Origin: an uncultured Candidatus Saccharibacteria bacterium
GTDB taxonomy: Bacteria; Patescibacteriota; Minisyncoccia; Phycocordibacterales; UBA9973
Reading direction: 5' to 3'
DNA length: 63,188 bases
Assembly: GCA_964496425.1 (NCBI GenBank)
Contig: CAZBZO010000006.1
Span: forward strand, 1,190 to 64,377
Shown: positions 2,875-43,819 of the stretch, one piece after another
Numbering within the stretch: the first letter of the stretch is position 1
How the letters are laid out: every line of letters starts with the position of its first letter
Notes under the pieces: generated by a model
Told to the model about the DNA's origin: nothing
The model's database searches: none
Seen by the model: only the letters and a program-made list of their open reading frames with translations
Program-made: the position numbers and the translations under genes

Positions 2875-4620
2875 CTACTTCATTAATACCTGGAGCTCCT
2901 TCAATGAAACTGTTGGCAATAGTTTTTCAGGGAAAGTAATCTCTCCGATGTTCACTGCGCCATCTTTTAGCTTCACAAGCCGGATGTCATTTTTGACAAA
3001 CATCTCCAAGAGCTTCTCCGCTGACCAGACAACTTCACCCGATGTTTTAGCTGCAAGAGCTAAACTTTTTATCAGGTTTATCATCTGTTTCGGCACCTCT
3101 GGTCCAAATAGGATTCCCAGGAGTTCCACATCCTGTTCAATGGACCGGCCTGACGACTGGACCAATTTTTCAGTTGAGTTCTCATCCGATTTTTTAGATC
3201 TAATGGACTCAGGCCTTACATCATCAATACTTATTGACTTATCCCCGAGCCTTGAGTCTATACCGATAAATCTTAGATCCTCCTGTAGTAAAACAATTTT
3301 TTCCTGCATTTTATTTGACGAAGCGAAGGTAACATAAAACCACCATGGTTTTTTCGAAGTATTTTGCCTGCGATGGATTCTGAGTTTATGTTTTTTTATT
3401 AACTCAATTATCACAGCACGGCACTCCTTGGGATTTTTTTCTCCTAAAGCAGGAGGTTCCAACTCAATAGTTGATTTTATTTTTCTCGTCTTGTAGGGTC
3501 TTCTCACAGTTCCAGTTACTGCTGAAAATTCTTCCAGAGGATTGAGGCTAACAGGCAAAACGACAGATGAATTCTTTTTTTCTTTACCTGATTTTCCTTT
3601 TGGAAGACGCACAGCCACGTATCCCGTATCAATTAATACTTTCATCACCTCTTCGGTATTTTTTGACTTGGCAATAACATAAGCAAATTTACTGCGAGGA
3701 GGAGTTAGGATATCATAAAGTTTGATTCCTTTTTTTGTGAGAATACTTCGTACCCGTTCATTCAAGTACCCTGGTGTTCCAATTTCTATAGCATCGTAAT
3801 AGCCCTTGGTTTTCTGCACGACCTGATAATTCAGGATCACCGCATCAGCACTGATGAATGAGAGGAAGAAGCCGCATCTTTCAAACTTTTCCATTGCGTC
3901 TCTACGATCTTTAATTGCTGTAGTTGTGTTGGTAAAATGAATTACAGCGCGCATCTTTCCATTAGTGAAATCTACTCTGGTATGAGCGGTTATTTCTTTC
4001 ACTATGGCCTTAATTGCTTTCTCGCGAATCAGCAAACTATCGGATGAGTGTGAAAAATGGATGGCTGACAGATCGATCGAAATCTTTCTCTCTGAGTGTT
4101 CGATCATTACGGCATCTCCATAGTAAATCACTAAACGTTCCATTTCAGCTAAAAGTTGTTTCCCCTGAGCGGTGTCATCACAAACGAACACAAATAATCC
4201 ACTCTGTGTGCTTTCTTCAACCGAAGTTTTTGGAATGTTAAAGCATAAAATAAAATCCTCCCAAAATGACTTCTCTGCAGCGGCATCAAATTGCTTTTCA
4301 TCATTATTTAGCAAAGAAACGGTGGATTCTGAAATTTCGTCTGGCAATTTCATACAACTAATTTTTACTATCGTTCTATCTCCTTTGGCTGTCTCAGCCT
4401 CACATTCTTTTGGTAGATTTTCACATACCGAAGATGCTATCCCGGCATTAAAAAATTTTAATTTAAAAACTACCGGGTCTTTCGCCAACGGCAATCGTTG
4501 GTATTCTTTAGGGAGATGAGGACTTGCTCCTATTGCTGTAAGAGTAAATTTATCCTCAATAAATTTACATACGGAGTTTATTATCACTGTACGTTTGTCT
4601 AAGGAAAGCTTTTTGCTCAT
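2875..4620 (-). CDS. large hypothetical protein (581 aa from ATG 4620)
   Basis: Long AT-rich ORF with its own consensus promoter and terminator; no family recognised. Confidence 0.75.
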   Translation of the reverse strand: MSKKLSLDKRTVIINSVCKFIEDKFTLTAIGASPHLPKEYQRLPLAKDPVVFKLKFFNAGIASSVCENLPKECEAETAKGDRTIVKISCMKLPDEISESTVSLLNNDEKQFDAAAEKSFWEDFILCFNIPKTSVEESTQSGLFVFVCDDTAQGKQLLAEMERLVIYYGDAVMIEHSERKISIDLSAIHFSHSSDSLLIREKAIKAIVKEITAHTRVDFTNGKMRAVIHFTNTTTAIKDRRDAMEKFERCGFFLSFISADAVILNYQVVQKTKGYYDAIEIGTPGYLNERVRSILTKKGIKLYDILTPPRSKFAYVIAKSKNTEEVMKVLIDTGYVAVRLPKGKSGKEKKNSSVVLPVSLNPLEEFSAVTGTVRRPYKTRKIKSTIELEPPALGEKNPKECRAVIIELIKKHKLRIHRRQNTSKKPWWFYVTFASSNKMQEKIVLLQEDLRFIGIDSRLGDKSISIDDVRPESIRSKKSDENSTEKLVQSSGRSIEQDVELLGILFGPEVPKQMINLIKSLALAAKTSGEVVWSAEKLLEMFVKNDIRLVKLKDGAVNIGEITFPEKLLPTVSLKELQVLMK

Positions 4621-4657
4621 GAGTTTAAGTTTTAAAAGGGTTAGAAAAATTTTGTTG

Positions 4658-4686
4658 ATTCTACATGGAAATCTTGAGTATGTCAA
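4658..4686 (-). promoter_or_regulatory. sigma70-type promoter TTGACA-N17-TAGAAT
   Basis: Near-consensus hexamers with 17-nt spacer, 37 nt upstream of ATG 4620. Confidence 0.75.
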
Positions 4687-4717
4687 GATAGTAAGATGGA
4701 GGATCAAACTTCAATAT

Positions 4718-8351: not shown

Positions 8352-8388
8352 AAATGTAAAATCCCCATTTGATGGGGATTTTACATTT
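8352..8388. terminator. bidirectional terminator
   Basis: 17-bp perfect inverted repeat aaatgtaaaatccccat/atggggattttacattt between convergent genes. Confidence 0.8.
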
Positions 8389-10873
8389 TCAAAATATCAT
8401 TGAGCACGTCAGCAGGTACTTCTTTGCGTTTTTTAGATGGTGTCGGTGGTGATGCTTCATCGTTTGCTTTTACAGAAGCAGCTTCAGCTTCTTTAGCGCG
8501 CATCTGTTCCTGTTTTTCTTTGGCGCGAATAGCTTCCTCCGCCTCTTCTTTGGCAGCCACCTCTTTAGCTTTAGCTTCCAGTACTCTTTTTTTCTCTTCT
8601 TCGAGCTCGACTTGTTTCTGCTCTGCTTCTTTTCGTGCTTTCTCGATGTTGTTTTTTTCTTCAAGCATTTTTCGCTCTTCTTCAAGGCGGGCAAGTTTTT
8701 GTTTTGCTTCCGCGATCGCCGCGGCTTCTGCAGCCTGACGCTCGGCCAATTCTTTTTCTTCTTGTTCTTTTTTTATTTTCTGATCTTCACCCACTTCTTT
8801 CTCTGGTACCGATGCTCGTGGATGGTCATTCCCTCCCATCGCTTTAGCAATGACATCTTTGAGAGCTGATACATGTTCGGTAGAAGCATCTTTGGTAGAA
8901 AGTGAGACTGGAGTAGATGATGGTTTCTTTAGATTGGAAAGTGACACGGCTTGCGCAGTCGGTTTTACGGAAATGACCTCTTCGTCTTTGGCTCCTCTGG
9001 CAGTAGGCACTGCACTGTGGCGCGAATAATCAGATGGTGTTTTTCCACCAGAGAGTGCTTCAGCGAGCACACTCTTGAGCCCTGCTAAGTCTGGAGCTTG
9101 GCGTTCTTTTGCAACAAATTTTTGTACTACCGGAGGCGTCTTCGGCGCAAATGAAGGAGTAGAAGATGGACTTTTGGAAACTTGAGAGGCGGGGCGGGGC
9201 GCTATTTCTGGTTGTGGTCGGCGAGCGGTAGTCGCGGTAGTCTCTGTGGTAGATGCTTTTGTTGCATCAAATTCAATACCGAGGTTTGCAAGCGGTGCGA
9301 ATGATTTTGATTCAGGGCCTCGCTTGGCTACGACTTTGAGCGGCTGAAGCTCACCGGCTTTTATTTTGGCGATACAGTCGCGACAATAGACGGGCCTGCC
9401 TGGAGCCGGCTCAAATGGTACCGTTGTTTCTTTGTTGCAGATCGAACACAATGCACGAAACTTCCCTTCAGCATTGAAGCCAGTGGATGCACCCGCGCCA
9501 GGACTTGAAGAAGAATTGGGTGTCGAGGTGGCATGCGAACCGTCGCCTGAACCCACCATCATGCCACTCCAGTCAGCAATTTCTCGCTCTACAATTTCTC
9601 TTGGCCGAGTATAGAGGCTGCGAGATGATTGGATGATCTCCTCTGCGACACTTGCTCCGCCCTCTATGACAAATGGCGCCATAGTGACCGCTGAAAACGG
9701 CCGAGAAGTTATACCGTCTACCATCAATTTCAGATAAATGTGGTAGTTGGGAATATTAACAACGTCTTGCGGAGTAAACTCAGGTTCAAATTCTTTTTCC
9801 AAAAATTCAGCATCAGCGGCGCCGACTCGAAAGACGATCATCGTACCCACGTTGCCGAAAACTGCATCACGCACACTATCTGAGCCGTTGACCGAAAGTT
9901 GGCCGATGTATTGGTGAGCAATGGTCAAGTCGAGGCGATACTTACGAGCTTCGGAGAGGATCGAAGCAAATGAATCCGTTACAAAGTTTTGAAATTCGTC
10001 GACATAGAGAAAAAAGTCTTTACGATCTTTCTCCGGGATACGGACACGCTCCATGGCTGCCAGCTGAAGCTTGGTGATCAGCATGCCACCCAAAAGTGCA
10101 GAGTTGTCTTCACCCACTCGACCCTTTGAGACGTTGACGAGGAAAATTTTTCCGGAGTTCATGACCTCAAAGAGATCAATCGTGGACTTGGCTTGTCCGA
10201 CGACGTTGCGGATGATGGAGGTCGAAAGAAATTGACCGACTTTGTTTTGAATTGGAGCGATCGCTTCATTACGAAACTGATCACGCCAGGCTTCATATTC
10301 ATGGATCCAAAAAGCTTTGACGACCGGGTCTTTCAAATTGTTGATGATCTGCTGACGGAAGTCCTTGTCGACTAAGAGACGCGGAATACCGAGAAGCGTC
10401 GAGCCCGGGGTGTCGAGAAGCGCTAAAATAGCGTTGTTCAAGATGTATTCCATTCGAGCACTCCAGGCATTGGCCCAAATCTTGGTGAAAATACCCATGA
10501 GACCTGATGCTACAAGGTGCTTATATTTTGGATCGTCGAGCTGAAGTACGTTGAAGCCAACGTGATAGTCGGTATCAGCCGGGTTGAAGTAAATAACATC
10601 TTTTATGCGGTGCGGTGGAATAGCCTCAAGGATCGATTCTACAAGCTCGCCGTGCGGATCTACCACACAGACGCCTTCCCCGGTGTAAATATTTTGAATG
10701 ACCATGTTGGTGAGCATGGCTGACTTACCGGTACCGGATTTACCAAGCACATAGACGTGCTGGCGTCGGTCTTTGCGCTTGATGCCAAAGACCTGATCTT
10801 TATTGCGAAAATTGGTTTTCGCAAGATATGTAATATCGTCGTTAAAATTGACGCCTTCGGGTAGAACTAGCAT
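8381..10873 (-). CDS. VirD4/TraD (HerA-FtsK)-like ATPase with CxxC-x17-CxxC zinc ribbon and E/K/A-rich coiled-coil tail
   Basis: Walker A GKSGTGKS, Walker B LYVDEFQN, SEARKY, AHQY; CSIC-x17-CRDC at 9374-9448. Confidence 0.85.
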   Translation of the reverse strand: MLVLPEGVNFNDDITYLAKTNFRNKDQVFGIKRKDRRQHVYVLGKSGTGKSAMLTNMVIQNIYTGEGVCVVDPHGELVESILEAIPPHRIKDVIYFNPADTDYHVGFNVLQLDDPKYKHLVASGLMGIFTKIWANAWSARMEYILNNAILALLDTPGSTLLGIPRLLVDKDFRQQIINNLKDPVVKAFWIHEYEAWRDQFRNEAIAPIQNKVGQFLSTSIIRNVVGQAKSTIDLFEVMNSGKIFLVNVSKGRVGEDNSALLGGMLITKLQLAAMERVRIPEKDRKDFFLYVDEFQNFVTDSFASILSEARKYRLDLTIAHQYIGQLSVNGSDSVRDAVFGNVGTMIVFRVGAADAEFLEKEFEPEFTPQDVVNIPNYHIYLKLMVDGITSRPFSAVTMAPFVIEGGASVAEEIIQSSRSLYTRPREIVEREIADWSGMMVGSGDGSHATSTPNSSSSPGAGASTGFNAEGKFRALCSICNKETTVPFEPAPGRPVYCRDCIAKIKAGELQPLKVVAKRGPESKSFAPLANLGIEFDATKASTTETTATTARRPQPEIAPRPASQVSKSPSSTPSFAPKTPPVVQKFVAKERQAPDLAGLKSVLAEALSGGKTPSDYSRHSAVPTARGAKDEEVISVKPTAQAVSLSNLKKPSSTPVSLSTKDASTEHVSALKDVIAKAMGGNDHPRASVPEKEVGEDQKIKKEQEEKELAERQAAEAAAIAEAKQKLARLEEERKMLEEKNNIEKARKEAEQKQVELEEEKKRVLEAKAKEVAAKEEAEEAIRAKEKQEQMRAKEAEAASVKANDEASPPTPSKKRKEVPADVLNDILKM

Positions 10874-10910: not shown

Positions 10911-12614
10911 TTATAGCACTTCTTTTTGATAACAAGCTTCGCAATATACTATTTCTGAGCGATCGGGAGCAAAAGCCGTCTCAAATGTATTAAGGCATAT
11001 ATTTTCGTGACCATGATCAGGGATGTCGCACATGCACGAGCGATGCCAGAGCTTTATCGGATTCTCCATTTTGAGACGTCTACTATTTCGACAGAAAAAG
11101 CACTCACGCGGAAGTGGCGCAGATATTCTCTGATGGAATTGAAGCTCTTCAGGAACAATTTTATAATTTCGCTCACACGTAATACAATCGAGAATCTCTT
11201 TAAGAATTTCTTCCGTTGTATTGCCAATCGCATCAGGCATGTTTTCAGCAAGCATTGTTTCTTTACCAGTCGTATGTTGAATTTCATCAAACCATGTATA
11301 CCCATTTCTCAGAGCTTCTTCTTTACTGAGTGGAAAATGTTCTTGCGCCATAGTTTCGTTATACCCAAAATATGAAAACTTGGCTGGAAAAAATTCTCCC
11401 CATTCCCTTGTCGCTCTCATATGCTCAATAATTTTTGGCACAAGCGCTTCATATTCTTCTTTCGTATATTCTTTATTTAGGATTAAATATTTTCCATGTC
11501 GTATTGCCGAACATCCAAAAAGATACTTCGATGAATGACAATTTTCCACATATGTGAGTTCCTGACTTTTTAGTGAATAAATTGAAAAGAACACTCGATA
11601 ATCATGGTCAGGCGTGAGTCCTTCATAACATTGGTCTGTCATGCCCGCCGGAGTGAGGTCGTAACTATTTTTTATTTCATTTCCACGGAAAAGAAAACGC
11701 GAATCTTCACAATCCCGAAGGAAACAGCTGTCTTTCGCATTTTTACATCCCCACAAACCGTCTCCTGTTGAATCGACACAGTTACGAATATTCGCAAACC
11801 GGCGAGGCTGTGTGGCCAAAAATTTGAAAAATTCTTTTTTCGCATACTCTGCTCCTGAATACGTATCGAGGCGGTATTCTTTCATAATTTTTTGATACTC
11901 CTCCTTTGTGAATTGTTTATTAAAAATGCAATAACTTTTCTGCCGCAGATTTACGCACATACAACAATTTGAACAACCCTTACAATCATATACAAAGACA
12001 CAGTCGGTAAGACCAGTGGAATAGTATGCATTTCGACAGTTATAACAATGCTCAAGAAATACTGAGTCGTAAATGAGTTCAGAATAATTAAAGATATCTA
12101 CGGTGTCTGTACAATAGCTCGTTTCGGGACCTGCATTATTGTAAAAATACATGCAATTCTCTGCGTACCACGTCATAGCACCCATATACATGTTCTTGGT
12201 AAACGTGGCATTGGTTGTGTATTCAGCATTTATACTTCCCACCCCGTCATCGTTAAACATTGCTGGCTGTGGAATAACATTTTGAAGATCGCGAAATTGT
12301 TCGAAAAACGGACGAGAGAAATCAAAATCGCGGCCATAGGTATGCGGATCCCAGGCATCGCTCCACCAGCATTTATTGCAATACACTACAAGTTTTTTCT
12401 TTGGCGAATGCAAAGAAATTATTTTTCTATTGCAAAGATCACATGTCCGGTTGTAAAACGAAAGGTCATTTCTCCATGCAAGACGGCGTTGGAGCCGGCA
12501 GGTCGAGCAAAATGTGGGTGCTGGCACACCAATCTTCTCATAAAACGAAAAATCATCGGGTTCGATGGTGAATTTTTGTGTGCAGTTTTGACAAATTTTT
12601 GTTTCTGGTTGCAT
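10911..12614 (-). CDS. Cys-rich multi-zinc-ribbon protein, paralog 1
   Basis: CQNC...PTFCSTCRLQRR, CxxC-x17-CxxC, WWSDAWDP, central CxxCxxC repeats, YGEFFP-like motif, C-terminal YCEACY. Confidence 0.85.
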   Translation of the reverse strand: MQPETKICQNCTQKFTIEPDDFSFYEKIGVPAPTFCSTCRLQRRLAWRNDLSFYNRTCDLCNRKIISLHSPKKKLVVYCNKCWWSDAWDPHTYGRDFDFSRPFFEQFRDLQNVIPQPAMFNDDGVGSINAEYTTNATFTKNMYMGAMTWYAENCMYFYNNAGPETSYCTDTVDIFNYSELIYDSVFLEHCYNCRNAYYSTGLTDCVFVYDCKGCSNCCMCVNLRQKSYCIFNKQFTKEEYQKIMKEYRLDTYSGAEYAKKEFFKFLATQPRRFANIRNCVDSTGDGLWGCKNAKDSCFLRDCEDSRFLFRGNEIKNSYDLTPAGMTDQCYEGLTPDHDYRVFFSIYSLKSQELTYVENCHSSKYLFGCSAIRHGKYLILNKEYTKEEYEALVPKIIEHMRATREWGEFFPAKFSYFGYNETMAQEHFPLSKEEALRNGYTWFDEIQHTTGKETMLAENMPDAIGNTTEEILKEILDCITCERNYKIVPEELQFHQRISAPLPRECFFCRNSRRLKMENPIKLWHRSCMCDIPDHGHENICLNTFETAFAPDRSEIVYCEACYQKEVL

Positions 12615-12645: not shown

Positions 12646-14340
12646 CTACAGCACTTCTCGTTGATAACATGCTTCACAATATATCACCTCTGGTCGCTCA
12701 GGCGCATACGGCGTGCGGATAGCCTTTTTACAAAAATCACAGTTTCGATCAAAAAGCCGAGTGGGTAAAAGTAGCTTTAATCTTTCAGCATGCCGCTCCT
12801 GTGGACACAAGCGTGGTAGAGGCAAACCCGCTTGACGATAAAACGCGAGCTCAGAGGGAATGATTCTATAGGCCTTGTCTGACACTTTACACTTAAGAAT
12901 CTTTTGTAAAATATCGTCACCAACGTCTTGTATGTCATCAGGGATCACATAATCAGAAAACTCGTAGTGTGTATCTGATACATACTCACTCCACGTGAAT
13001 CCTTGATCGATTACCTCTTCTTTTGTTAGTGGAAAGTTTTCAGGAGCAGTCGTTTCATTGTATCCAAATGGAGAAAGTTCCGAAGGAAAGAACTCACCGT
13101 ATGTGTATACTTTTCCTTTTTTGTCTACATACGGCATGTCGTTCATATGAGCTTTTATTTTCGGTAAAAGTGTCAAGTATTCATCTTTGGAATATCGGCG
13201 GTTTAAAATGACATATTCGCCACCACGAATCGAAACACAACCGAAACAATTGCTTGAACTCGTACTGACCGCACAATATTCCAGATTTTGCACCGTTACT
13301 TTTTTAAAAGGATCATTCGAAAGACACAGAAGTAAGAACTTCGAATTATACCCTCCACCACTACTTGAACATTCATACACGAGCTCAGCCGCTCCAAAGC
13401 ACGAACAATCGTATCCTTCCTTCACCCATCCGGTAATAAACATATGTTTGCAATTTTCAACCTTGGTTGACTCCCAGACATCATGAGCATTTTTTGATTC
13501 CGACACTGCATTACCAGTAACATCAACTGATTTAAATATTGTGTTTTCGCGATGTGGAGACTGTATCCATATCGGCATTGATTGCTCTTTCCACCACGAC
13601 GCTTCGGTATGTGAAGATACAGGATGTTCCTTTAGAAATTGCTCATATGATTCTTTGCTTTTTTGTTCATTAAAAATACAATACTGCTTGTTTCGGAGTC
13701 CTGCGCAACCAATAATATCCTTGCAGTTTCGACAATCATACGAAAAGAATGTATCAAGCGAATCATGACATTCAAGAGAATAGTGCGTATTATAATCGCG
13801 CTCGCAATGAACATTGTTACTACAGCGATCAGAATTGAGTATCCAGTAGTTATCAAAACAATTTTTGCTTTGCACGCCATATGTGCAGTAAGCTGAATCT
13901 TCGTTGTATAAACCACCAATATTTAAGTAGCAATTTTTACTGTCGGTTTCCTGATTAACCCATTCACTGTTGATACAGTTGGAATTGAAAATAGAAATAT
14001 GAGGAACGGTATAAAAAAGTTCCTTCCACTGATCAAAAAATGGTCGGGAAAAGTCATAAGCCCTGCCGTATGAATACGGATCCCATTTGTCGCTCCACCA
14101 GCAATTTGAGCAATACATTGGATACGGTTTGTCCGGTGAAATCCGGGAAACTACGCTCGTGTGGCACATATCGCAATCCCTCTTATAAAAATTACGCTCA
14201 TTACGAAATGAAAGTCTACGCTGAAATCTACAATCCGGACAAAATGTCGGCGGCGGAACACTCATCTTTTCGTAAAACGAAAAATCATCTGACTCGATGG
14301 TAAAATCTTTTTTGCAGTTTTGGCAGGTTTTTATTTCCAT
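12646..14340 (-). CDS. Cys-rich multi-zinc-ribbon protein, paralog 2
   Basis: Same architecture as paralog 1; start overlaps the stop of paralog 3 (TAATG). Confidence 0.85.
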   Translation of the reverse strand: MEIKTCQNCKKDFTIESDDFSFYEKMSVPPPTFCPDCRFQRRLSFRNERNFYKRDCDMCHTSVVSRISPDKPYPMYCSNCWWSDKWDPYSYGRAYDFSRPFFDQWKELFYTVPHISIFNSNCINSEWVNQETDSKNCYLNIGGLYNEDSAYCTYGVQSKNCFDNYWILNSDRCSNNVHCERDYNTHYSLECHDSLDTFFSYDCRNCKDIIGCAGLRNKQYCIFNEQKSKESYEQFLKEHPVSSHTEASWWKEQSMPIWIQSPHRENTIFKSVDVTGNAVSESKNAHDVWESTKVENCKHMFITGWVKEGYDCSCFGAAELVYECSSSGGGYNSKFLLLCLSNDPFKKVTVQNLEYCAVSTSSSNCFGCVSIRGGEYVILNRRYSKDEYLTLLPKIKAHMNDMPYVDKKGKVYTYGEFFPSELSPFGYNETTAPENFPLTKEEVIDQGFTWSEYVSDTHYEFSDYVIPDDIQDVGDDILQKILKCKVSDKAYRIIPSELAFYRQAGLPLPRLCPQERHAERLKLLLPTRLFDRNCDFCKKAIRTPYAPERPEVIYCEACYQREVL

Positions 14341-15992
14341 TAGCTAATATTGCTTTTATAGCAATCTTCACAAGATACATTCTCATACCCCCACGATCGT
14401 GGATAGTATCCAACAATATTTTTTGAACAATAAAAACATGAATAGTTTTCTCCTTGCGTGGGTGCAAGTAGCCGCATTCGACTCTTTGTACGTACATCAA
14501 AATGCACTCGTGGCAGGGCTATATTCTTTCTCTTAAGAAATGCGAGTTCGTCTGGCGCTATATTAAAACGCCACCCTGTTACAGGGCAAATAAGTGCCTG
14601 TTTTGAAATACTTCCTGAGATATCATGTATGCTATCAGGTAAATCATTCGTCGCGATCCCCTCTATATGATCTTCTCTGGAATCGTCCCAATATCCTCCT
14701 TGAGAGAGCACAAATTCCCTTGAGACTTCAGGAAAATAAATTTGTGCAGTTGTTAAATTATACGGACACAGTCCCATATTGTATGGGAGAAATTGTCCGT
14801 ATTCATTCCTGGCTCGCATATCGGAAATTATTGTTTCGCGAAGACTTTCATATTCTTCTTTTGTGTATTGTTTATTGAGAATGCAATATTTCTTCTTTCG
14901 TAGCCCTACACATCCAAAACAATATTCAACCTCTGCGCATTGGTCGAGGTACTCCGAATACCGACCATCAGACCACGAAGAATACTTAAGCTGATATCCA
15001 GCTGTTGCACAGCTATTTCTTCCCGAGAGCTCGATTTGCCAACAGCCTAACATATCAATACAGTCTGTGGCAGTACGGCCACGTAGGCAGTCGTAACAAT
15101 TTTCCGAATCTTCAAAGCTAAAAACATTATGACAATTATTACAGTTTGCAAGATAGGTACCTTCCGAATTATACGTATTCAAAGTAAAATTTTGTCGGTG
15201 AACAAAATCTTTTTTTAAAATCTCTTCGTATCGTTCTTTTAGTTTTTCCAAACTTTTGTTTGAACTTAGATCATATTCCTTGAGTTTTTCTACATATTCC
15301 TCTTTGGAATATTGCTTGTTCTCGATACAGTATTGCTTCCCGCGCAAATTCCAACACATGGTGCAATTGGTGCAATTACGGCAGTCATACAAAAATTGGG
15401 AATCCATACAATCCCGACAGTTACGCGAAAACAAAACATTAAAAGAATTGAAGGTATATGTACATTCGTAACAATTATCAAGGTTAAACACATGCGAAAT
15501 ATCAATCGAATCTTTTGTATCAAACGCACGATATCCATAGGAAAGATTCTCGCTACGAGCGATGGAACGAGAAAGATAACAATTTTTACATTCCCATGCA
15601 TCATCACACCAGTCAGAATTTGTATTTTGTGCACCTTGCTGATGTGGGCGCGGCACCTTTTCTTGTAGCTCTTTCAATTGGTCAAAGAAAGAGCGACTGG
15701 GGTCATACGTCAAACCAAAACTCATTGGGTCCCAAGCATCAGAAAACCACTCACTTGAAGTATAGATCGGATATCGGGCACTTGCCGGAAGTATAGTAAT
15801 GAGATTTTCTCCAGATAAATCAGACGTTCCCTTCCGAAACTTCCCAAATGGCCAAAAGGCGAAATAGTGCTTCATCCGACAGGAAAAACACTGGGTCGGA
15901 AGTGGAATCGCTACCTTCTCATACATAGAAAGCTCGTCAGGAGAAATTGTGAAACGTGTTTGGCAATGCTCGCAAACTTTTTGAGTATCCAT
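14340..15992 (-). CDS. Cys-rich multi-zinc-ribbon protein, paralog 3
   Basis: Same architecture, but second zinc site altered (SDLS...TSSE); TGG-TAGTCT 6 nt upstream. Confidence 0.85.
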   Translation of the reverse strand: MDTQKVCEHCQTRFTISPDELSMYEKVAIPLPTQCFSCRMKHYFAFWPFGKFRKGTSDLSGENLITILPASARYPIYTSSEWFSDAWDPMSFGLTYDPSRSFFDQLKELQEKVPRPHQQGAQNTNSDWCDDAWECKNCYLSRSIARSENLSYGYRAFDTKDSIDISHVFNLDNCYECTYTFNSFNVLFSRNCRDCMDSQFLYDCRNCTNCTMCWNLRGKQYCIENKQYSKEEYVEKLKEYDLSSNKSLEKLKERYEEILKKDFVHRQNFTLNTYNSEGTYLANCNNCHNVFSFEDSENCYDCLRGRTATDCIDMLGCWQIELSGRNSCATAGYQLKYSSWSDGRYSEYLDQCAEVEYCFGCVGLRKKKYCILNKQYTKEEYESLRETIISDMRARNEYGQFLPYNMGLCPYNLTTAQIYFPEVSREFVLSQGGYWDDSREDHIEGIATNDLPDSIHDISGSISKQALICPVTGWRFNIAPDELAFLKRKNIALPRVHFDVRTKSRMRLLAPTQGENYSCFYCSKNIVGYYPRSWGYENVSCEDCYKSNIS

Positions 15993-16023: not shown

Positions 16024-17511
16024 CTAGATAAGGGGCTCGGCGGTCGCTTCAGCTTTGGCGGGTGCCGCTTCTTCCTCTATTTCTTCCCCACTAGCGTCAT
16101 CTTTGCGGGCTTTACGAGTAATAGCTGCTTTTTCTTGTGCGCTACGAATGATAGAGGATTCTTCTTCTTCAATGAGTTTCTTGGCAGCATCAGCGGTGAT
16201 GGCATATTTGCGGCGCGAAGCAGCAAGAATTTCTGCTTTGTATGACGGATGCGTGGCTGGCAAGACTTTCAAGGTCTCGGCAGAAAACGGATCGTAGGAT
16301 TCTCCATCGATTGTCATTTTGATATAGAACTCCGCAATACCTAAGTTGATCATATCTTTGATATCGAAGATCGGCGCAAATTCTGGCTTGAGCTCAACAG
16401 CGTCCTCGCCGCCCACACGGAAGCAAATAAGTGAGGCCACATTACCACGAACTGCTCGCTGAATCTTTTGCGACAGTTGTCCCAGGTACTGGTTGGCGAC
16501 AATAAGATTGAGGCCGTATTTACGGGCCTCAGAGAGAATGTTTTCAAATGTATCAGTGACCACGTTTTGAAACTCGTCCACGTAGAGATAAAAGTCTTGG
16601 CGGTCTTTAGGATCCATTTTTGCGCGCGCCATACCCGCCTGTTTGATTTTGGTGAGAAACATGGAACCAAAGAAGCTCGAGTTTTCTTCACCAATTTTTC
16701 CCTTAGAGAGATTGATGAGAATAATTTTTTGACTATTCATCAAGGCTTCAATATCGACTTTGTTTTCTTTTTGACCAAAAATATTTCGAAGCATCGGGTC
16801 GGAGAGAAACTGCCCGAGCTTGTTGACGAGCGGAATGATAGCGTCGGTGTCAAATTTTTCTGACCAGTCGGCAAATTCAATCGCCCAGAAGCGCTTGACC
16901 ATATCGTCTTCGATATACTCCACCACTTTCTGACGGTAGTTACGATCTGTGAGCATCGAGATCATACCGCGCATCGTGGCATGCGGATAGTCGAGGAGTG
17001 CGAGAGTCGTGAAACGAAAGACGTGCTCCAAGCGTGGCGTCCAGTTGGCCCCAAATTGTTTCTCCAACACTTCGATCAAACCCTGCGTGAGTTGGTGCTT
17101 GAAAGTGAGGTCGATATTTTGCAGTGGATTGAAAGAAGCTGGATAGTCGATATCGGACGGATCAATAATACACACATCCTCGATGCGATCTTCTGGCACG
17201 AAATTTAAAATATCATCGATAAATTCTCCGTGCGGATCGATCACACAGAGGCCATGGCCATAGGCAATATCTTGGCGCACCATCAGCTCTTGGAGTTTGG
17301 ATTTGCCGACACCAGACTTGCCGACGATGTACATATGACGTCTACGGTCAACACGCTTAATGCCGAAGATAAATTTCTTTTCTTCAAGTGCCGCTACATA
17401 GTTGGTGCGGCCAATAAAAACGATGTCAGCAGGATCCCCTTGCCCATACATCGGCAGCTCCGGTGGCGGTGGCGCATATTTGATTATTTGGATTTTATTG
17501 GCGCGTGGCAT
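16024..17511 (-). CDS. VirD4/TraD (HerA-FtsK)-like ATPase, second paralog
   Basis: Walker A GKSGVGKS, LYVDEFQN, SEARKY, ANQY; collinear with the ATPase core of 8381..10873. Confidence 0.85.
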   Translation of the reverse strand: MPRANKIQIIKYAPPPPELPMYGQGDPADIVFIGRTNYVAALEEKKFIFGIKRVDRRRHMYIVGKSGVGKSKLQELMVRQDIAYGHGLCVIDPHGEFIDDILNFVPEDRIEDVCIIDPSDIDYPASFNPLQNIDLTFKHQLTQGLIEVLEKQFGANWTPRLEHVFRFTTLALLDYPHATMRGMISMLTDRNYRQKVVEYIEDDMVKRFWAIEFADWSEKFDTDAIIPLVNKLGQFLSDPMLRNIFGQKENKVDIEALMNSQKIILINLSKGKIGEENSSFFGSMFLTKIKQAGMARAKMDPKDRQDFYLYVDEFQNVVTDTFENILSEARKYGLNLIVANQYLGQLSQKIQRAVRGNVASLICFRVGGEDAVELKPEFAPIFDIKDMINLGIAEFYIKMTIDGESYDPFSAETLKVLPATHPSYKAEILAASRRKYAITADAAKKLIEEEESSIIRSAQEKAAITRKARKDDASGEEIEEEAAPAKAEATAEPLI

Positions 17512-17587: not shown

Positions 17588-18010
17588 TTATTTGAGAAAA
17601 CTGCCGCGAAGCGTTTTCATGGCCAAATAGGTAGCAAAGAAAAAAAGAAGCGACAATACTTGGTTGACCCAAAAGAAAGCAATATTTTTTACATCTTCTG
17701 GAGGCAAATGCAAATATGCAAAGACTGCGAAGTATTCAAATACTGCAAACCCTATCACCGGAACAATAGTGTTTAGAGCAAGCACCCAGCGCTGCTCGGG
17801 ATTCATCAAGCCGCCGGCAACAGCGAGTAAAATGATGATAAAAAGGACAGTCGGGATCGGCAATGGTATCAAGGAAGCAAAAAAGGGAAACCCGATTAGC
17901 ATAATGACGCCGGTGAGAATAAAAATCCCTCTGATCGTATCTCCATAATAATGAGCAAGACTTTTGTCGGTAATATTTTTAGTCGCTTGCTCGGTGACTT
18001 GGTCGTTCAT
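17588..18010 (-). CDS. four-TM membrane protein of unknown function
   Basis: Four hydrophobic helices; ATG 18010 lies 6 nt after TGG-TATACT. Confidence 0.75.
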   Translation of the reverse strand: MNDQVTEQATKNITDKSLAHYYGDTIRGIFILTGVIMLIGFPFFASLIPLPIPTVLFIIILLAVAGGLMNPEQRWVLALNTIVPVIGFAVFEYFAVFAYLHLPPEDVKNIAFFWVNQVLSLLFFFATYLAMKTLRGSFLK

Positions 18011-18074
18011 GGCTACAGTATACCACTTTGAGGGCACCAATAAAAAGCACAGCTGGTAATATTTTTTACTCCGT

Positions 18075-32229: not shown

Positions 32230-33900
32230 TCAGTCTAGATCAATGACCGTAATACTGTATGGCTTGAGTGTCATACCATTTTCCAAAAGCACGGTTCCTT
32301 TTTCGAGTTTGGCTGAAACTGGAGCGATAGCACCTTGCGTGGTCTTAAAATGAGAATATGCAGGAGAACTCCCGATCGATCCGTAAGGTTTTTCACTCCA
32401 TAGCGAAGTAGAATTCTTTGCTCCACTTTGAAGCTCGCCGTTCACACTTACACTTTTGATCGCCCGCTCTGGGCCATTATTGTAAATGTAGAGTCTCATC
32501 GTATCGCTTGTGACGGTGATCGCATCCAGTCCGTCAATCGTACTTCCGAGTTGGGTTTTTATAAAAAGCGGATTTGCGGAGGCAAACACTGGCTTTAGCA
32601 TTTCATACGCCACTCCTGGTACCCGTTTTACAAATGACCGCGAGCCATCAGTGCCAATAAAACTCGGATCGATCTCAAATAGTCCATCGGCTTGCTCGTA
32701 CGGGCTGACAGCGTTTTCATTGACGAGAAAAATCGCGGAATTAACGAAATTGTTGTGCGTGCTGTTGAATTTAAGAATTTCAAACAAGAAATTCCAAATC
32801 ATAACACCGTGAAGCATGGTATGGGCACCATAACCACCGCGCTGAAGACTGAGTCCATACTGGCCAAGATGCATTTTGATGCTCGGCATTTCTTTGGCAT
32901 AGGTGGAAAGTCTAGGCAACAAGGTGTCGCGAAGACTCGCCGAGAGCTGCGGACGAATTTCAGCAAAGTATTCATCTATCGAGGTCTTACTCGAGCGTCC
33001 GTCGAGCCAAGCGTACTGACTAAATTCTGCCACTCCATGATCGCGGGCCCAGGCATACACATCAGCATTGTTCCAACTCGGCGTCGAATGGTCCGCCATA
33101 TTCACCACCATAGGTGGGAGCGGTGAATAGTGGCTTTTTAAATACGCATAAAATTCATCGAGCTTGGCGATATATTGGTCTGATGTCAGGGCGCCACCGA
33201 TACCAGTCGATACTTCTTGACCAAAACGAAGCTTGTATGATCCGATGCCATGGGATTTGATCGAATCAATAAAGACTCCCATTTCTTCTGGTGTACCATG
33301 AATAATATTGGCAGTAAACACAAAGGTTTGATCGTGATTTTCTACATACTTGGCAGTTGCATCCCAAAAATCCACGCCGGTGTCATTAATCTTTTTTTGT
33401 AAATTGTATGCCCCTGAAGTGCTGTTGGTGTAATGAAAAATTTCATCGAGATTGGCACCCATGCCGACGACCGGTGCGCCAGTAGCTTTCGCCGGCCAAC
33501 CAGAAAGTGCGATCGGATGAATCCAGCGATCTTCGGCGCCTGCTGTGTAGGCCCCGCTAGTAAACCCAACCTCTTGGATCATCGTATTCCAAAGTGGATT
33601 GGCACTAAAATCATTAAAATCTTTTCCAATATTATTGAGCGCCACACCAAAGAGATCTTTGGCGATTGGTGTCTCTCCTGCAGTAATGATGTTGATGGTC
33701 ACGCCACCTGAAGTATCCATGCTCGGTGTAAGTATGGTATCGCTTCCGCCCGTGAGGTCAGTACGTGAATTGGTGTCTCCTGTACGGCTTGATCGTTCAC
33801 TTCCAGTACGAGTGGCAAATTGATACACAAAAAATCCTATTACAAGGACTGCGATGATAGCCAGAGCGAGGAGTATGTATTTTTTAGAAATAGGTGGCAT
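32230..33900 (-). CDS. membrane-anchored protein, possible glycoside-hydrolase (TIM barrel plus beta sandwich) fold
   Basis: N-terminal TM helix, S/T/G/D-rich linker, RFGQE and HLGQY at positions typical of clan GH-A catalytic motifs, C-terminal LKPYSITVI. Confidence 0.45.
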   Translation of the reverse strand: MPPISKKYILLALAIIAVLVIGFFVYQFATRTGSERSSRTGDTNSRTDLTGGSDTILTPSMDTSGGVTINIITAGETPIAKDLFGVALNNIGKDFNDFSANPLWNTMIQEVGFTSGAYTAGAEDRWIHPIALSGWPAKATGAPVVGMGANLDEIFHYTNSTSGAYNLQKKINDTGVDFWDATAKYVENHDQTFVFTANIIHGTPEEMGVFIDSIKSHGIGSYKLRFGQEVSTGIGGALTSDQYIAKLDEFYAYLKSHYSPLPPMVVNMADHSTPSWNNADVYAWARDHGVAEFSQYAWLDGRSSKTSIDEYFAEIRPQLSASLRDTLLPRLSTYAKEMPSIKMHLGQYGLSLQRGGYGAHTMLHGVMIWNFLFEILKFNSTHNNFVNSAIFLVNENAVSPYEQADGLFEIDPSFIGTDGSRSFVKRVPGVAYEMLKPVFASANPLFIKTQLGSTIDGLDAITVTSDTMRLYIYNNGPERAIKSVSVNGELQSGAKNSTSLWSEKPYGSIGSSPAYSHFKTTQGAIAPVSAKLEKGTVLLENGMTLKPYSITVIDLD

Positions 33901-39355: not shown

Positions 39356-42049
39356 ATGGAGACATGGCCAAGCCCAAAATCTAAACATGAACTGAAGGAG
39401 CAGATAAAAGATACTAATAAAGTTCTTGCTGTACCGATTTCTTCTGCGTCAATAAATAAAGAGTTACGGAAACTAACAACCGAAGAAATTAAAGAAAAGT
39501 ATACTGAAAGGTATGAAGTATATTTGAGAATTCTTCGTGCACAAAAGAATAATCAAGAAATATCAGAAGAAGATATACTTAACACCCAGAAATGGATTGA
39601 GTCACTAAACAATCTTGATCGATATATTGATTCTCATCAAAATAGGCAAGAAAAAAGAATATTGCGAGAAAAACAGTTTACTGTTTTTGAAAATGTAAGA
39701 AAATCATTAGAACAGGGTAAAAAGGAAGGATATATTAAACTTCCAACTGGTGTTGGGAAAACAGTACTGTTTTCCCAGATTGTTGAGTCTCTAGGCACAA
39801 AAACACTTATTTGTGTTCCATCGAAAATTCTCGTTACCCAAACTGGAGAGAAACTTGAAGAATTTACTGATGTAGAATTTGGAAAATATTTCCAGCATGA
39901 AAAAGATTTCTCAAAAGATGTTACTATAATCACATATCAGTCACTTATCAACGGAATTGAGAAGGGTATTATTAATCCCAAAGACTATGGGGCAATCATC
40001 TTGGATGAAGTGCACAAAGCCTTAGGTGGAAAAACTTCTGAGGCAATAAATAAATTTAATTGTATTAAACTCGGTTTCACCGCGACTCCACAATACACTG
40101 ATAAAAATGTAAGCGAACTCCTTGAGCACGAGATTCATAGTATGAGTATTGCAGAAGGCGTAAATGGTGGTCTCATAAATCGCTTTAAATCTATCTTTGC
40201 CCATACAGAAGTTGATCTTTCAAAAGTTAAAATCAAACAGGGTGAATATGATCAAGATGAGCTTGAAAAGGCGGTCAACATACAAGCCAGAAATCTTTCA
40301 GCAGTTCAACTCTATAAAGAAATGTTCGTGGGACAAAGTGCTATAGCTTATTGTTCAGGAGTTACTCACGCTAAAGATATGGCTGATCTTTTTAATAAAT
40401 ATGGCGTATCTGCAGCTGCAATAACTGGAACAACATCTCAAGGAGATAGAGAGATAATTCTCAAAAAATATCATGCCGGAGAAATCAAAGTTTTATGTAA
40501 TGCAAAAGTACTTATAGAGGGTTTTGACGAGCCTCACGCAAGTGTAGCTCTTAATCTCCATCCGACGCTCTCAAAGGTTAACGCAGAACAACGCGCGGGC
40601 CGTGTTTTACGTCTCGATAATGACAATCCTGAAAAATGGGCTTATGTTGTTGATTTTATTGACAAAAATGCGAGAAAACCACAAGTCACATTTCCAGAAA
40701 TTGCTGGAGCTAGTGAACTTAGTTCTGATATAGAGCCAGGTGCGGAATCTCGTGATGGAAGTAGTAGAGAACATCTCTTAGGTAACAATAAAATCCCCGA
40801 AATCCAAGGATTAAGAATAATTCTTGATACACAAGAGGTAATGCGCATGAGTGAACAAGGCGTTCTTGCTAGAGAAGCAAGCGAAAGCAAGAGGTGGGTT
40901 TTTGAAAAGCTCAAAAGAGAGGTTCAGGGAAAAGGAGTCAAGAGTCCAAAAGAATATGAAGCCCTGCGCCAAAAATATAAATGGCTTTCGTCACGAAATC
41001 TTTTACTTAGACCTGAATTTAAAGGCTGGGATGATTTTTTAGATGGCAAAAAACTTTTTCAGAACTTAAAAAAAGAGGTGCAAGAAAAAGGAATTAAAAC
41101 TTCTGGCGAATATGCTCGTAATTCGCCCAAATATCATTGGCCCTCATTAGCTACTCTTATGAGTAAATCTGAATTTAAAGGCTGGGATGATTTTTTAGAT
41201 CGTGATCTTGAGGCGAAAGCACTGCAAAAGCAGAAATATTTTGATCAGTTAAAAAAAGAGGTAAAAGAAAAAAATATTAGCTCTTCTACTCAATATGCAG
41301 CAGTTGCAAAGATTTATAAATGGCCGGCTCTAACTACACTTGCGGCCTTTCCAATGTTTAAGGATTGGGATGATTTTCTGGGAAGAGAAAAATTTAATTT
41401 TGAAAAGTTTAAATTGGAAGTACAAGCAAAAGGCATTAAATCATCTACAGAATATATAGATGTTTCGCCCGAAAACAAGTGGCCAAATTTCTCTACCCTT
41501 ATTAAAAACCCGAAATTTATCAGCTGGGATGATTTTCTAGGAAGGGAAAAGAAATTATGGACAACTTATGAAGACTTAAAAAAAATGGTGCGGGAAATGG
41601 AAGTCCAGAATCCTTACCAATATAGCAGATTGCAACCAAAGTATCGCTGGCCTTCAAAGGAAGCTCTTATAAAGAAACCGGAATTTACAAACTGGGGAGA
41701 TTTCTTGGGAATTGAAAATATGAAAGAATGGACGGTAGATGAACTAAAAAAAGTCGTTAATGAGACAAATATAAAATCTACACACCAGTATCAAAAAATA
41801 AGTTCTATAAAAAAGTGGCCTGATTTTTCAACCGTTAAAAAGATGGCTGGATTCAGAGATTGGAATGATTTTTTTGATACTGAACCAAAAAAAGCCTGGA
41901 CTCTCAGTGAATTAAAAAAAGAATTAATAGGAAAGAATGTGACCACCAAAGGAAAATACAAATTGCTCTCACCCAAATTAGGATGGCTGGATCACAGAAA
42001 AGTTGAAAAGCTTCCCGGCTTTTCAAGTTGGGATGAATTCCTCTCTTAA
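39356..42049 (+). CDS. SF2 DExH (ResIII-like) helicase with seven C-terminal tandem repeats
   Basis: LPTGVGKT, ILDEVH, GFTATP, QRAGRVLR; 7 copies of F/L..LK.EV....I....Y......W......F..W..F(L/F). Confidence 0.88.
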   Translation: METWPSPKSKHELKEQIKDTNKVLAVPISSASINKELRKLTTEEIKEKYTERYEVYLRILRAQKNNQEISEEDILNTQKWIESLNNLDRYIDSHQNRQEKRILREKQFTVFENVRKSLEQGKKEGYIKLPTGVGKTVLFSQIVESLGTKTLICVPSKILVTQTGEKLEEFTDVEFGKYFQHEKDFSKDVTIITYQSLINGIEKGIINPKDYGAIILDEVHKALGGKTSEAINKFNCIKLGFTATPQYTDKNVSELLEHEIHSMSIAEGVNGGLINRFKSIFAHTEVDLSKVKIKQGEYDQDELEKAVNIQARNLSAVQLYKEMFVGQSAIAYCSGVTHAKDMADLFNKYGVSAAAITGTTSQGDREIILKKYHAGEIKVLCNAKVLIEGFDEPHASVALNLHPTLSKVNAEQRAGRVLRLDNDNPEKWAYVVDFIDKNARKPQVTFPEIAGASELSSDIEPGAESRDGSSREHLLGNNKIPEIQGLRIILDTQEVMRMSEQGVLAREASESKRWVFEKLKREVQGKGVKSPKEYEALRQKYKWLSSRNLLLRPEFKGWDDFLDGKKLFQNLKKEVQEKGIKTSGEYARNSPKYHWPSLATLMSKSEFKGWDDFLDRDLEAKALQKQKYFDQLKKEVKEKNISSSTQYAAVAKIYKWPALTTLAAFPMFKDWDDFLGREKFNFEKFKLEVQAKGIKSSTEYIDVSPENKWPNFSTLIKNPKFISWDDFLGREKKLWTTYEDLKKMVREMEVQNPYQYSRLQPKYRWPSKEALIKKPEFTNWGDFLGIENMKEWTVDELKKVVNETNIKSTHQYQKISSIKKWPDFSTVKKMAGFRDWNDFFDTEPKKAWTLSELKKELIGKNVTTKGKYKLLSPKLGWLDHRKVEKLPGFSSWDEFLS

Positions 42050-42276
42050 GACTATCTTTAAAAATCATTATTTCGAAGGCATATCTGCTTTCGAACCCTC
42101 TATATTAACAATTGTTCAAACGACTGACTATTGCAATGTATAATCGCTATGCTCTGTAATTACGATTATTGTCACAAATAACAGGTTCGAGTCCTACTGG
42201 GTCATAAAACCTTTTTTGTGAAAAATAGAGAACAAAAAAAGCCTTGATACTAAAGGCTTTGTTATTACTACCATAG

Positions 42277-42320
42277 GTGGACCGTACAGGACTCGAACCT
42301 GCCACCCCCTCATTGCAAAT
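42277..42320 (-). repeat. att-type duplication of the 3' half of tRNA-Ala(TGC)
   Basis: 44 bp identical to 46000-46043; identity ends at the anticodon loop. Confidence 0.92.
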
Positions 42321-42530
42321 AATTCGACCGAAGTTAAATCAATGAAAAGCGTTGGAAATAAAGGTTAAAATGTGAATTTGAAAAAGAATTTGTACCCGTC
42401 TATGTGCACCTGTTTAAGAATTAAACATGCAGGAAAATCTAATACTGCAGATCGCAATAATTAAATTAATAAACTGACCGACGTAGTTAATGATATTCCT
42501 TTCAAGAAAATTATCAATACTCTATAAAAT

Positions 42531-42561
42531 AAAAGAGCCTCCGTTTGGCGGAGGCTCTTTT
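42531..42561. terminator. intrinsic terminator
   Basis: aaaagagcctccg-tttgg-cggaggctctttt. Confidence 0.8.
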
Positions 42562-42573
42562 AGACTTTTTTGT

Positions 42574-43260
42574 TTAAAGGAAAGCTATCCTTGTTGAACT
42601 ACTGTGACCATCGTTATAACCAATATCTTCACTATTGATATATAGATGGTTATGAGAAGCATCTCGAACAACTGTTGCCAGGTATAGATCATTGTGATTG
42701 CGCCAGCGTTCAATTTCGTAATACACAGATATTATTGACCTTCTTTTATCAATCTGACCCGAAAGTATTGCCGATTTAATGATTGAAAATGCCTGATACG
42801 GTGTATATATCTTCTTTATTCCGCACTTCTCAGCTTCGGCAAGAGTCATGGGGTGAGTGTAATATAAACTGTTCGGCCCCTCTCTTTCTTCTTTTGTGTT
42901 GTAAATAGAATAGAGATTTGTGTTGAATGGAAGAAAGCTTTTCATCGTGCTTCCAGAAGGAAATATGGTTCTCCAAATATGCTTTGGCGTTAAACTGAAA
43001 TCAGGTATTTCCCAACCTCGTCCCAGTTCATACTCATTTACTTCTTCCCAGAAGGCTGCCATATTTTTCTTAGTAACTTTAAGTTTTGCATTCGGGGAAG
43101 GAACTTCAAAAGTACTGGTCTTTTTAAATATCGTTGAACCTATGTCCCCTTTCTTTCGAAAGTCGGCAAGAAATTTTAGCAACTGGTTTCTTTCTGTTTC
43201 GGGGTATTCTGTGTTAGCAACGAGCTTTAGTAAGTCATTCTTCAAGTTTATTTTTTGCAT
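42574..43260 (-). CDS. hypothetical protein (island cargo)
   Basis: ORF from MQKINL; TTGACA upstream at 43370-43375; terminator downstream. Confidence 0.65.
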   Translation of the reverse strand: MQKINLKNDLLKLVANTEYPETERNQLLKFLADFRKKGDIGSTIFKKTSTFEVPSPNAKLKVTKKNMAAFWEEVNEYELGRGWEIPDFSLTPKHIWRTIFPSGSTMKSFLPFNTNLYSIYNTKEEREGPNSLYYTHPMTLAEAEKCGIKKIYTPYQAFSIIKSAILSGQIDKRRSIISVYYEIERWRNHNDLYLATVVRDASHNHLYINSEDIGYNDGHSSSTRIAFL

Positions 43261-43400
43261 GTTCTTTGTTTTTTGGTTTCTATAAAAGAGTGGGGCTAGG
43301 TCCCTACTATAGAAACCAAAAAACATCTGAAAAACTGCTTTCTGTTTATAGTAATACAAATATTTACTTTGTCAAACGCCAATTTCAATTACGCTAGTCG

Positions 43401-43739: not shown

Positions 43740-43819
43740 TACGTCACACTACCACAAAGTATGGGAAATAAAATCGTTGCACGACCCCTCAATATGTTAT
43801 GGATTTAATAGAGGCAATC

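Follow-up and report, generated by a model that had tools for sequence, protein, structure and literature searches.

A CxxC-x17-CxxC finger family shared by a VirD4/TrwB-like ATPase and neighbouring Cys-rich proteins in a Patescibacteria locus

The five-gene block and its fingers

The stretch of DNA analyzed here, referred to as the window, comprises 63,188 nucleotides of contig CAZBZO010000006.1 from an uncultured Candidatus Saccharibacteria bacterium (assembly GCA_964496425.1). Its feature of interest is a CxxC-x17-CxxC zinc finger (two CxxC pairs separated by 17 residues) that lies in the tail of a VirD4/TrwB-like P-loop ATPase, here called ATPase A, and that has counterparts in three adjacent Cys-rich proteins, paralogs 1 to 3 (P1 to P3). 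Together with a second ATPase, ATPase B, these genes are arranged in the order B-P3-P2-P1-A, with intergenic gaps of at most 38 bp and one start/stop overlap. The only strong terminator of the five-gene block lies after gene A, in the form of a terminator-like hairpin that marks where the operon ends, and the B-P3-P2-P1-A block constitutes a single operon. The features of the block are the following:

8352-8388, minus strand: terminator-like hairpin with a 17-bp stem, directly past the stop codon of ATPase A
8381-10873, minus strand: ATPase A, 830 residues, soluble VirD4/TrwB-like P-loop ATPase (Pfam; member of clade A)
8384-8425, minus strand: extreme C-terminal motif of ATPase A, KEVPADVLNDILKM (from a comparison of 15 A-type tails)
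9269-9301, minus strand: ATPase A tail motif FAPLANLGIEF, residues 525-535 (from the same 15 tails)
9374-9448, minus strand: CxxC-x17-CxxC finger of ATPase A, predicted treble clef (TIGR04272, PF23477, and an AlphaFold2 model)
10911-12614, minus strand: Cys-rich paralog 1, 567 residues, four finger sites
10932-11036, minus strand: paralog 1 site 4, C-terminal finger whose first knuckle bears a His-rich insertion of 10 residues, CMCDIPDHGHENIC
11091-11186, minus strand: paralog 1 site 3, x24 finger
12369-12443, minus strand: paralog 1 site 2, x17 finger CDLC-x17-CNKC
12498-12593, minus strand: paralog 1 site 1, x24 finger
12646-14340, minus strand: Cys-rich paralog 2, 564 residues, site 3 degenerate
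12667-12741, minus strand: paralog 2 site 4, C-terminal CDFC-x17-CEAC, C534/C537/C555/C558
14101-14175, minus strand: paralog 2 site 2, CDMC-x17-CSNC, C56/C59/C77/C80
14230-14325, minus strand: paralog 2 site 1, x24 finger
14340-15992, minus strand: Cys-rich paralog 3, 550 residues, site 2 lost
14361-14438, minus strand: paralog 3 site 4, variant CFYC-x18-CEDC
15879-15974, minus strand: paralog 3 site 1, x24 finger, intact
16024-17511, minus strand: ATPase B, 495 residues, soluble type IV coupling protein (T4CP)-like ATPase without the finger (Pfam; clade analysis)

The finger of ATPase A reads CSIC-NKETTVPFEPAPGRPVY-CRDC in the minus-strand translation of 9374-9448 (residues C476-C500), exactly as an earlier note, made from the letters of this stretch, had read it, and its predicted ligands are C476, C479, C497, and C500. 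The same note had mentioned a TIGRFAM family defined by this spacing; the family exists as TIGR04272 (cxxc_cxxc_Mbark), and its model scores the ATPase A finger at 51.4 bits against a cut-off of 36. The Pfam model PF23477 (zf_Tbcl_2) covers residues 472-504 with 48.9 bits against a gathering threshold (GA) of 27, and the finger is classed on these profile scores as a bona fide PF23477/TIGR04272 domain. A-type ATPases already carry the automatic label 'CxxC-x17-CxxC domain-containing protein'. In its AlphaFold2 model (predicted local distance difference test score, pLDDT, of 87.5), the first CxxC lies between strands E7-10 and E17-20, and helix H33-40 starts with the second, an arrangement consistent with a treble-clef fold, in which a hairpin knuckle is followed by a helix whose N-terminus holds the other CxxC. 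A Foldseek search of the PDB with this model returned generic small zinc fingers only (E>=2).

The three paralogs, in which Cys amounts to ~6% of the residues, share an architecture composed of an N-terminal pair of x24 and x17 fingers, two bodies, a conserved alpha/beta region, and a C-terminal finger pair, and paralogs 1 and 3 are, respectively, 41% and 33% identical to paralog 2. The N-terminal x17 copies that the earlier note had pointed out in paralogs 1 and 2 and the x18 copy of paralog 3 are present, as are, at the C-terminus of paralog 2, the CDFC-x17-CEAC string with its P-aromatic-x-P pattern and the Tyr preceding its third Cys. In paralog 3, all four Cys of site 2 are gone and the x18 C-terminal copy scores just 5-7 bits. 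The bodies (12900-13900 in paralog 2) appear as tandem Cys-rich beta-solenoid-like domains with a strand every 12 residues, each of them capped by GC.GLR.K.Y.I.NK.YSKEEYE and then a helix. The AlphaFold2 model of paralog 2 (pLDDT 81, predicted template modelling score 0.80) had no PDB match below E 0.1 in Foldseek, and its top weak matches were left-handed beta-helix enzymes, which suggest that the paralog body is solenoid-like and nothing more; PDB sequence searches with the paralogs yielded LIM-domain noise only.

The paralog family comprises more than 7,194 homologues, nearly all annotated as 'hypothetical', and every named source belongs to the Patescibacteria; homologues of paralog 2 show 49-75% identity over 100% of its length. 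Of 195 full-length paralogs, 187 retain all four Cys at site 1, 100 at site 2, 59 at site 3, and 190 (97%) at the C-terminal site 4, the C-terminal x24 copy having lost one or more Cys in ~70% of the family. At the position of the paralog 1 site 4 knuckle, a large subfamily of orthologues carries H.HG...C in place of CxxC, pointing to a Cys/His ligand swap at this putative C-terminal zinc site. Within arrays of paralogs, identity reaches 0.57-0.69 at the ends and 0.52-0.69 at ends plus caps, as against 0.16-0.30 in the bodies, and the ends are basic, with median net charges of +2 and +4, while the bodies are acidic (-9). The PF13451 (zf_Tbcl) model gives no match to the window paralogs at E<=1, and weak or precomputed matches exist in certain orthologues. 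The notion that the paralog family is phage-borne was discarded; viral contigs yielded one marginal fragment.

Homology among the fingers

The earlier note had described the fingers of ATPase A and of its Cys-rich neighbours as the same zinc ribbon, and had named a lack of profile similarity beyond Cys spacing as what would speak against its proposal. For a comparison of profiles, 84 related loci were gathered from public Patescibacteria contigs and genomes, and ungapped hidden Markov models (HMMs) were built from 14 ATPase fingers (consensus EKFdAvCSiCGKeTTVPFkPEPGRPVYCKDCIAKIK), 41 paralog C-terminal fingers (CaKCGK.IeTSYaPdRpEIvYCEkCYQqEV), and 92 paralog N-terminal x17 fingers (CDLCkKsiISmYsPd.pytVYC..CWWSD). 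Comparisons of the ATPase set with the paralog sets give cross-HMM scores of 16-26 bits, and those of the two paralog sites with each other 33-37 bits; Cys-preserving shuffles scored with the same HMMs reach 2-4 +/- 3.4 bits. Likewise, hhalign aligns ATPase and paralog fingers with probabilities of 96.9% and 97.3% (E 1.7e-10 and 2.7e-11), and paralog C-terminal with N-terminal fingers with 98.5%. Since the cross-HMM scores far exceed those of the shuffles and the hhalign probabilities are this high, the likeness of the fingers goes well beyond Cys spacing, and the lack of profile similarity named by the earlier note is not observed. Furthermore, the AlphaFold2 models predict the same topology at the ATPase A finger and at both x17 sites of paralog 2, which are modelled as E52-55/E62-65/H78-81 and E530-533/E540-543/H556-562. 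On these comparisons, the paralog x17 fingers are classed as homologous, yet clearly diverged, relatives of the ATPase A finger. Within the window alone the cross-scores are 7-18 bits, with ATPase A and the paralog 2 C-terminus as the best pair, the one whose likeness the earlier note had pointed out.

The alternative that the shared Cys spacing arose by chance or convergence, with no homology involved, draws on the Cys content of the paralogs and on one x17 string that is no finger. A six-frame translation of the window contains only five exact CxxC-x17-CxxC strings, all of them in three adjacent genes, which speaks against chance; one of the five, the CYNC...CKGC string at 11973-12047 (minus strand), which lies inside the repeats of the paralog 1 body, is matched by none of the finger HMMs. 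This string is hence regarded as incidental, which implies that spacing alone is not diagnostic in the Cys-rich paralogs; in a similar vein, the x18 strings at 12432-12509 and 14164-14241 are mere linkers between two separate putative zinc sites. Residue shuffles generate the motif in approximately 0.6% of cases for the paralogs (0.005-0.007), but in 0 of 20,000 for ATPase A, whose 830 residues include 5 Cys. The real fingers score 16-37 bits where Cys-preserving shuffles score 2-4, and with hhalign probabilities of 97-98.5% a chance or convergent origin is extremely improbable; we consider it ruled out by the shuffle tests together with hhalign.

Gene neighbourhood and candidate roles of the finger

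ATPases A and B are related proteins of contrasting build. ATPase A has its Walker A motif at G44-S51 within a core spanning residues ~30-430, followed by a disordered, low-complexity tail of ~400 residues that contains the finger. It matches PF10412 (TrwB_AAD_bind) with 40.2 bits (GA 20.5) and PF12696 with 24.4 bits, and a PDB sequence search with it gave one weak match to the TrwB P-loop; ATPase B matches PF02534 with 30.3 bits (GA 20.1) and PF10412 with 30.1 bits. The T4CP models of Pfam that match the two proteins are thus TrwB_AAD_bind, T4SS-DNA_transf, and TraG-D_C, and in NCBIfam both proteins stay far below the TraD/VirD4 cut-offs: ATPase A scores 41.6 bits at best and ATPase B 55 bits, and the cut-off of TIGR03743 is 366. 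The Walker A motif begins at residue 44 in ATPase A and at residue 64 in ATPase B, preceded by polar residues, so neither protein has space for a transmembrane anchor ahead of it.

Across the core, ATPases A and B are 44% identical. ATPase B has 3 Cys in total and no CxxC, in agreement with the claim of the earlier note that it lacks the finger, and this difference extends to the related loci, in which the finger is found in 14 of 15 clade A ATPases and in none of 18 clade B ATPases. Median identities across loci are 61% for A-A, 76% for B-B, and 45% for A-B comparisons, and best matches are always of the same type. Judging from these identities, ATPases A and B represent two old, distinct clades, of which clade B is the older and more conserved. 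The suggestion of the earlier note that ATPase B may receive the finger in trans is neither supported nor contradicted by these comparisons. Fourteen of the 15 A orthologues keep the finger at core identities of 46-73%.

The tail of ATPase A contains several conserved short motifs, among them FAPLANLGIEF and EVPADVLNDILKM. The former sits 25 residues past the finger, has the orthologue form F.PLADLGIEF, and is retained in L033, the A-type protein that has no finger; the extreme C-terminal motif KEVPADVLNDILKM has the orthologue form +EVPEDVL+KILE. Other conserved motifs of the tail (8384-9301, minus strand) are of L..L type or resemble L+EIL.K.L, ISL..LK, and DRSAS.EDMNKLKDLI, and in the window the tail also has an extended K/E-rich coiled coil that is weakly similar to TolA. 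ATPase B ends in a short, acidic, and variable linker that terminates as ...AEPLI-COOH in the window (last 15 codons, including the stop, at 16024-16068, minus strand). All 18 genome loci and 36 of the 47 metagenome loci encode this invariant EP[LM]I-COOH terminus, and we speculate that it might be a docking peptide or a ligand of the finger. An assignment of the locus to a PADLOC defence system was examined and dropped; the ATPases show only generic mad8/HerA P-loop similarity and the paralogs match nothing.

The neighbourhood was approached from both sides. In a search anchored on the paralogs, these occur as same-strand arrays of 1-10 copies; an ATPase is found in 17 of the 26 long loci having at least two paralogs, and of the 42 ATPases, 26 have a same-strand paralog within 200 bp. 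The search anchored on the ATPases covered 80 loci on independent metagenome contigs, where a paralog is present in 45 and the membrane protein DUF8128 (PF26449), as a separate gene or fused, in 44; one or both are present in 70 of the 80 loci, and in 40 of the 45 loci of at least 10 kb. Being seen from the paralog and from the ATPase searches alike, the association of ATPase, paralogs, and DUF8128 is reciprocal and three-part, and the operon structure and this two-way conservation of the neighbourhood indicate that the genes are functionally linked. Finger homology and operon conservation, taken together, are the conclusion that we hold with high confidence.

The protein encoded most often beside these T4CP-like ATPases is DUF8128, a membrane protein of ~460 residues. 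It is fused to the N-terminus of the ATPase in several loci, constituting a Rosetta-stone link (L032:9532-12276, L070:13062-15827, and L076:37-2334, and also L138-L146, L153, and L165), and such fusions occur in the genome and metagenome sets alike; separate DUF8128 genes are found in L001, L027, L033, L035, L058, L063, and many of L089-L168. In many Nomurabacteria and Paceibacteria, the block of A, paralogs, and B lies between dnaK, which is preceded by a PaaX-like regulator, and dnaJ (L003, L015, L016, L021, L024, L036, L041, L042, and L077). This embedding was considered as a functional clue and set aside because it is missing in the window and in other lineages; it is probably lineage-specific synteny.

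Beyond the block, the flanks of the window hold housekeeping genes (sigma/anti-sigma factor, GDH, ABC exporter, GuaA, UvrABC, TGT, and a P-type ATPase), and a Pfam scan of the 20 larger flanking open reading frames (ORFs) found no match to virB or relaxase families. A 150-residue multi-pass membrane protein (17588-18040, minus strand) lies on the same strand 76 bp upstream of ATPase B; it has no Pfam match and no similarity to DUF8128. Two long ORFs, at 2875-4707 (minus strand, 610 residues) and 32230-33900 (minus strand, 556 residues), have no Pfam match at E<=1e-3 / 1e-4. Finally, a ResIII/DEAD-type helicase of 897 residues (39356-42049, plus strand) lies near an AAA_21 (AbiEii-like) ATPase of 595 residues (43820-45607, minus strand), and the two (39356-45607) may form a defence-type gene pair.

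The explanation that we favour, and that we advance tentatively as a whole, is that the finger is a shared ligand-binding module rather than purely a docking tag. The finger would serve as a common module for binding a ligand, most probably nucleic acid or another polyanion, and the same ligand would be held by the flexible tail of ATPase A and by the basic ends of the Cys-rich proteins. Paralog-ligand complexes would thereby be brought to the A/B motor, which would be tethered to the membrane via DUF8128 wherever DUF8128 is present. Nucleic-acid binding as the activity common to the fingers is a possibility to which we lean with reserve. It is favoured because the canonical family resembles RGG-type nucleic-acid binders, because the paralog ends are basic, and because the motor is a member of the TrwB family, which binds DNA.

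Several observations weigh against this explanation, and a number of them speak for shared ancestry only, that is, for the fingers being generic structural zinc staples in genes whose linkage has other causes. Treble-clef fingers are common, and the canonical domain is promiscuous: an exhaustive phmmer search of cluster representatives with the window finger identified 1,920 at E<=1e-3, finger-bearing representatives being mostly small archaeal and candidate phyla radiation proteins. Among the best 150 of the 1,920, 99 are small proteins of 87-340 residues with 2-5 tandem fingers and RGG/RD-rich linkers, and the remainder are mostly A-type ATPase tails or fragments; named sources of the small finger proteins are Thermoplasmatota, Diapherotrites, Kerfeldbacteria, Sungbacteria, Microgenomates, and Negativicutes. 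The finger of ATPase A resembles this stand-alone canonical family more closely than it does the fingers of the paralogs, from which it is well diverged within the window (7-18 bits), and may hence have been acquired independently of them. Furthermore, the N-terminal x17 site (site 2) has been dispensed with in approximately half of the paralog family, L033 is the sole clade A protein without a finger, and 8 of the 24 long loci with a finger-bearing ATPase lack a paralog within 10 kb.

Other points count against the favoured explanation without bearing on ancestry in particular. PF23477 scores 15.2 bits on paralog 1 (residues 545-565) and 16.8 bits on paralog 2 (residues 530-561), below the GA of 27, and in a Pfam scan it matches neither the N-terminal copies of the paralogs nor paralog 3; with 15-17 bits at best, the window paralog fingers lie outside PF23477 by the curated cut-off, and certain paralog orthologues do have a precomputed match. 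Where paralogs occur singly, an ATPase lies within 10 kb in just 2 of 13 cases, and no DUF8128 homologue is present in the window. Three stand-alone finger genes have no T4CP or paralog neighbours, and the genes that do lie beside them (Obg GTPase, DEAD-box helicase, and redox genes) show no common theme. Foldseek searches with the paralog 2 and finger models found no significant analogue with a known ligand, and the RGG linkers and basic charge are circumstantial indications of nucleic-acid binding.

Shared ancestry alone, however, does not readily account for the retention and the distribution of the finger. The ATPase A finger is a lone domain in a disordered tail, where there is nothing around it to stabilise, and 14 of 15 orthologues nevertheless retain it; site 4 persists in 97% of the paralogs. 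The finger HMMs were also run over ~2.4 Mb of neighbourhoods, made up of ~1.4 Mb of loci together with the window and 0.99 Mb of metagenome loci, where the hits number 393 and 122 in paralogs, 3 in paralog fragments, and 15 and 32 in ATPases, with none in any other ORF, so that the domain occurs there in just these two co-operonic families. By these counts, the finger is promiscuous globally and strongly enriched at this type of locus. The earlier note had named promiscuity without local enrichment as what would speak against its proposal, and only the promiscuity was found. Its proposal that the shared module links these genes functionally is hence upheld in part, as regards one homologous finger family and the linkage of the genes, and weakened by the wide occurrence of the canonical domain outside the locus, by the finger-bearing ATPases that have no paralog nearby, and by the loss of site 2 in about half of the paralogs. 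We regard shared ancestry only as an unlikely, though not negligible, explanation.

A different role for a conserved finger is that of a protein-protein docking handle or cargo signal, with the fingers themselves, the motifs of the ATPase A tail, the EP[LM]I-COOH end of ATPase B, or DUF8128 as proposed partners. The paralogs would then be recruited to the ATPases as adaptors or translocation substrates, much as the C-terminal extension of TraD recruits TraM, and in agreement with this the ATPase core has a match to PF12696, which represents the part of TraD/TraG that recognises TraM. Docking is also compatible with the location of the finger in a long disordered tail rich in conserved short linear motifs and with the persistence of the EP[LM]I-COOH terminus (18/18 genome and 36/47 metagenome loci). 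Within arrays, moreover, the constant ends and diversifying bodies of the paralogs have the appearance of a constant handle on a variable body, and the link to the DUF8128 membrane protein fits a translocon. On the other hand, members of the canonical family are mainly free-standing proteins of tandem fingers joined by RGG linkers, for which no protein partner is evident; the paralogs, which lack a signal peptide and have many putative zinc sites, would be unusual as exported cargo; and in a third of long loci the finger-bearing ATPase has no adjacent paralogs. Docking is nearly as good an explanation as nucleic-acid binding, and we consider it somewhat unlikely.

In a broader proposal, the orphan VirD4-like ATPases of Patescibacteria would be the motor of a distinct, undescribed three-part system and not spare parts of a type IV secretion system. 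Such a system would consist of the DUF8128 membrane protein, the soluble A/B ATPase pair, and arrays of diversifying Cys-rich solenoid proteins, with the finger as the handle that couples the solenoid proteins, or their nucleic acid, to the motor for translocation or remodelling. As it stands, this proposal is doubtful.

Comparison with known systems

The finger domain, its annotation in ATPase A, and its zinc binding in Methanosarcina mazei, where inductively coupled plasma mass spectrometry was applied to small proteins of the CxxC-x17-CxxC domain family (PMC12704099), are already known. In the searched literature, we found no description of the homology between paralog termini and the finger domain, of the Cys-rich paralog family, or of the conserved module of ATPase, paralogs, and DUF8128. 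The locus provides the first multi-domain context for the functionally unassigned PF23477/TIGR04272 finger and a reproducible genomic context for the orphan VirD4-like ATPases of Patescibacteria, whose tiny genomes keep roughly two such ATPases each, not linked to virB4. It thus turns the labels 'type IV secretion system DNA-binding domain-containing protein' and 'hypothetical protein' into the testable hypothesis of a lineage-specific machine.

With respect to TIGR04272/PF23477, the ATPase A finger has the Cys spacing of the family and its consensus F/Y-x-A-x-C-S-x-C-G-K-x-T-x-V-P-F-x-P-x-x-G-R-P-V-Y-C-x-D-C. Known members, however, are mostly proteins of 50-340 residues made up of only 1-5 fingers and RGG/RD linkers, whereas here a single finger sits in the tail of an 830-residue ATPase and the paralog copies, divergent and below the family threshold, are joined to solenoid bodies and an x24 finger. 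At each end of the paralogs, the first finger recalls PF13451 zf_Tbcl (CxxC-x24-CxxC) in its x24 spacing and inserted helix; the window paralogs have no profile match to PF13451 at E<=1, and some orthologues have weak or precomputed ones.

The likeness of ATPases A and B to the type IV coupling proteins (VirD4/TrwB/TraD) resides in the P-loop core that matches the T4CP models of Pfam, and the tail of ATPase A recalls the C-terminal tail with which TraD recruits TraM. Of 5,713 T4CP homologues in Patescibacteria, just 148 lie near virB4 (PMC12102498), and in being mostly not beside virB4 these orphan homologues resemble the ATPases described here. Unlike the canonical coupling proteins, ATPases A and B lack the N-terminal transmembrane anchor and form a conserved pair that brackets Cys-rich paralogs, and the membrane part would be supplied, in other genomes, by a separate or fused DUF8128 protein.

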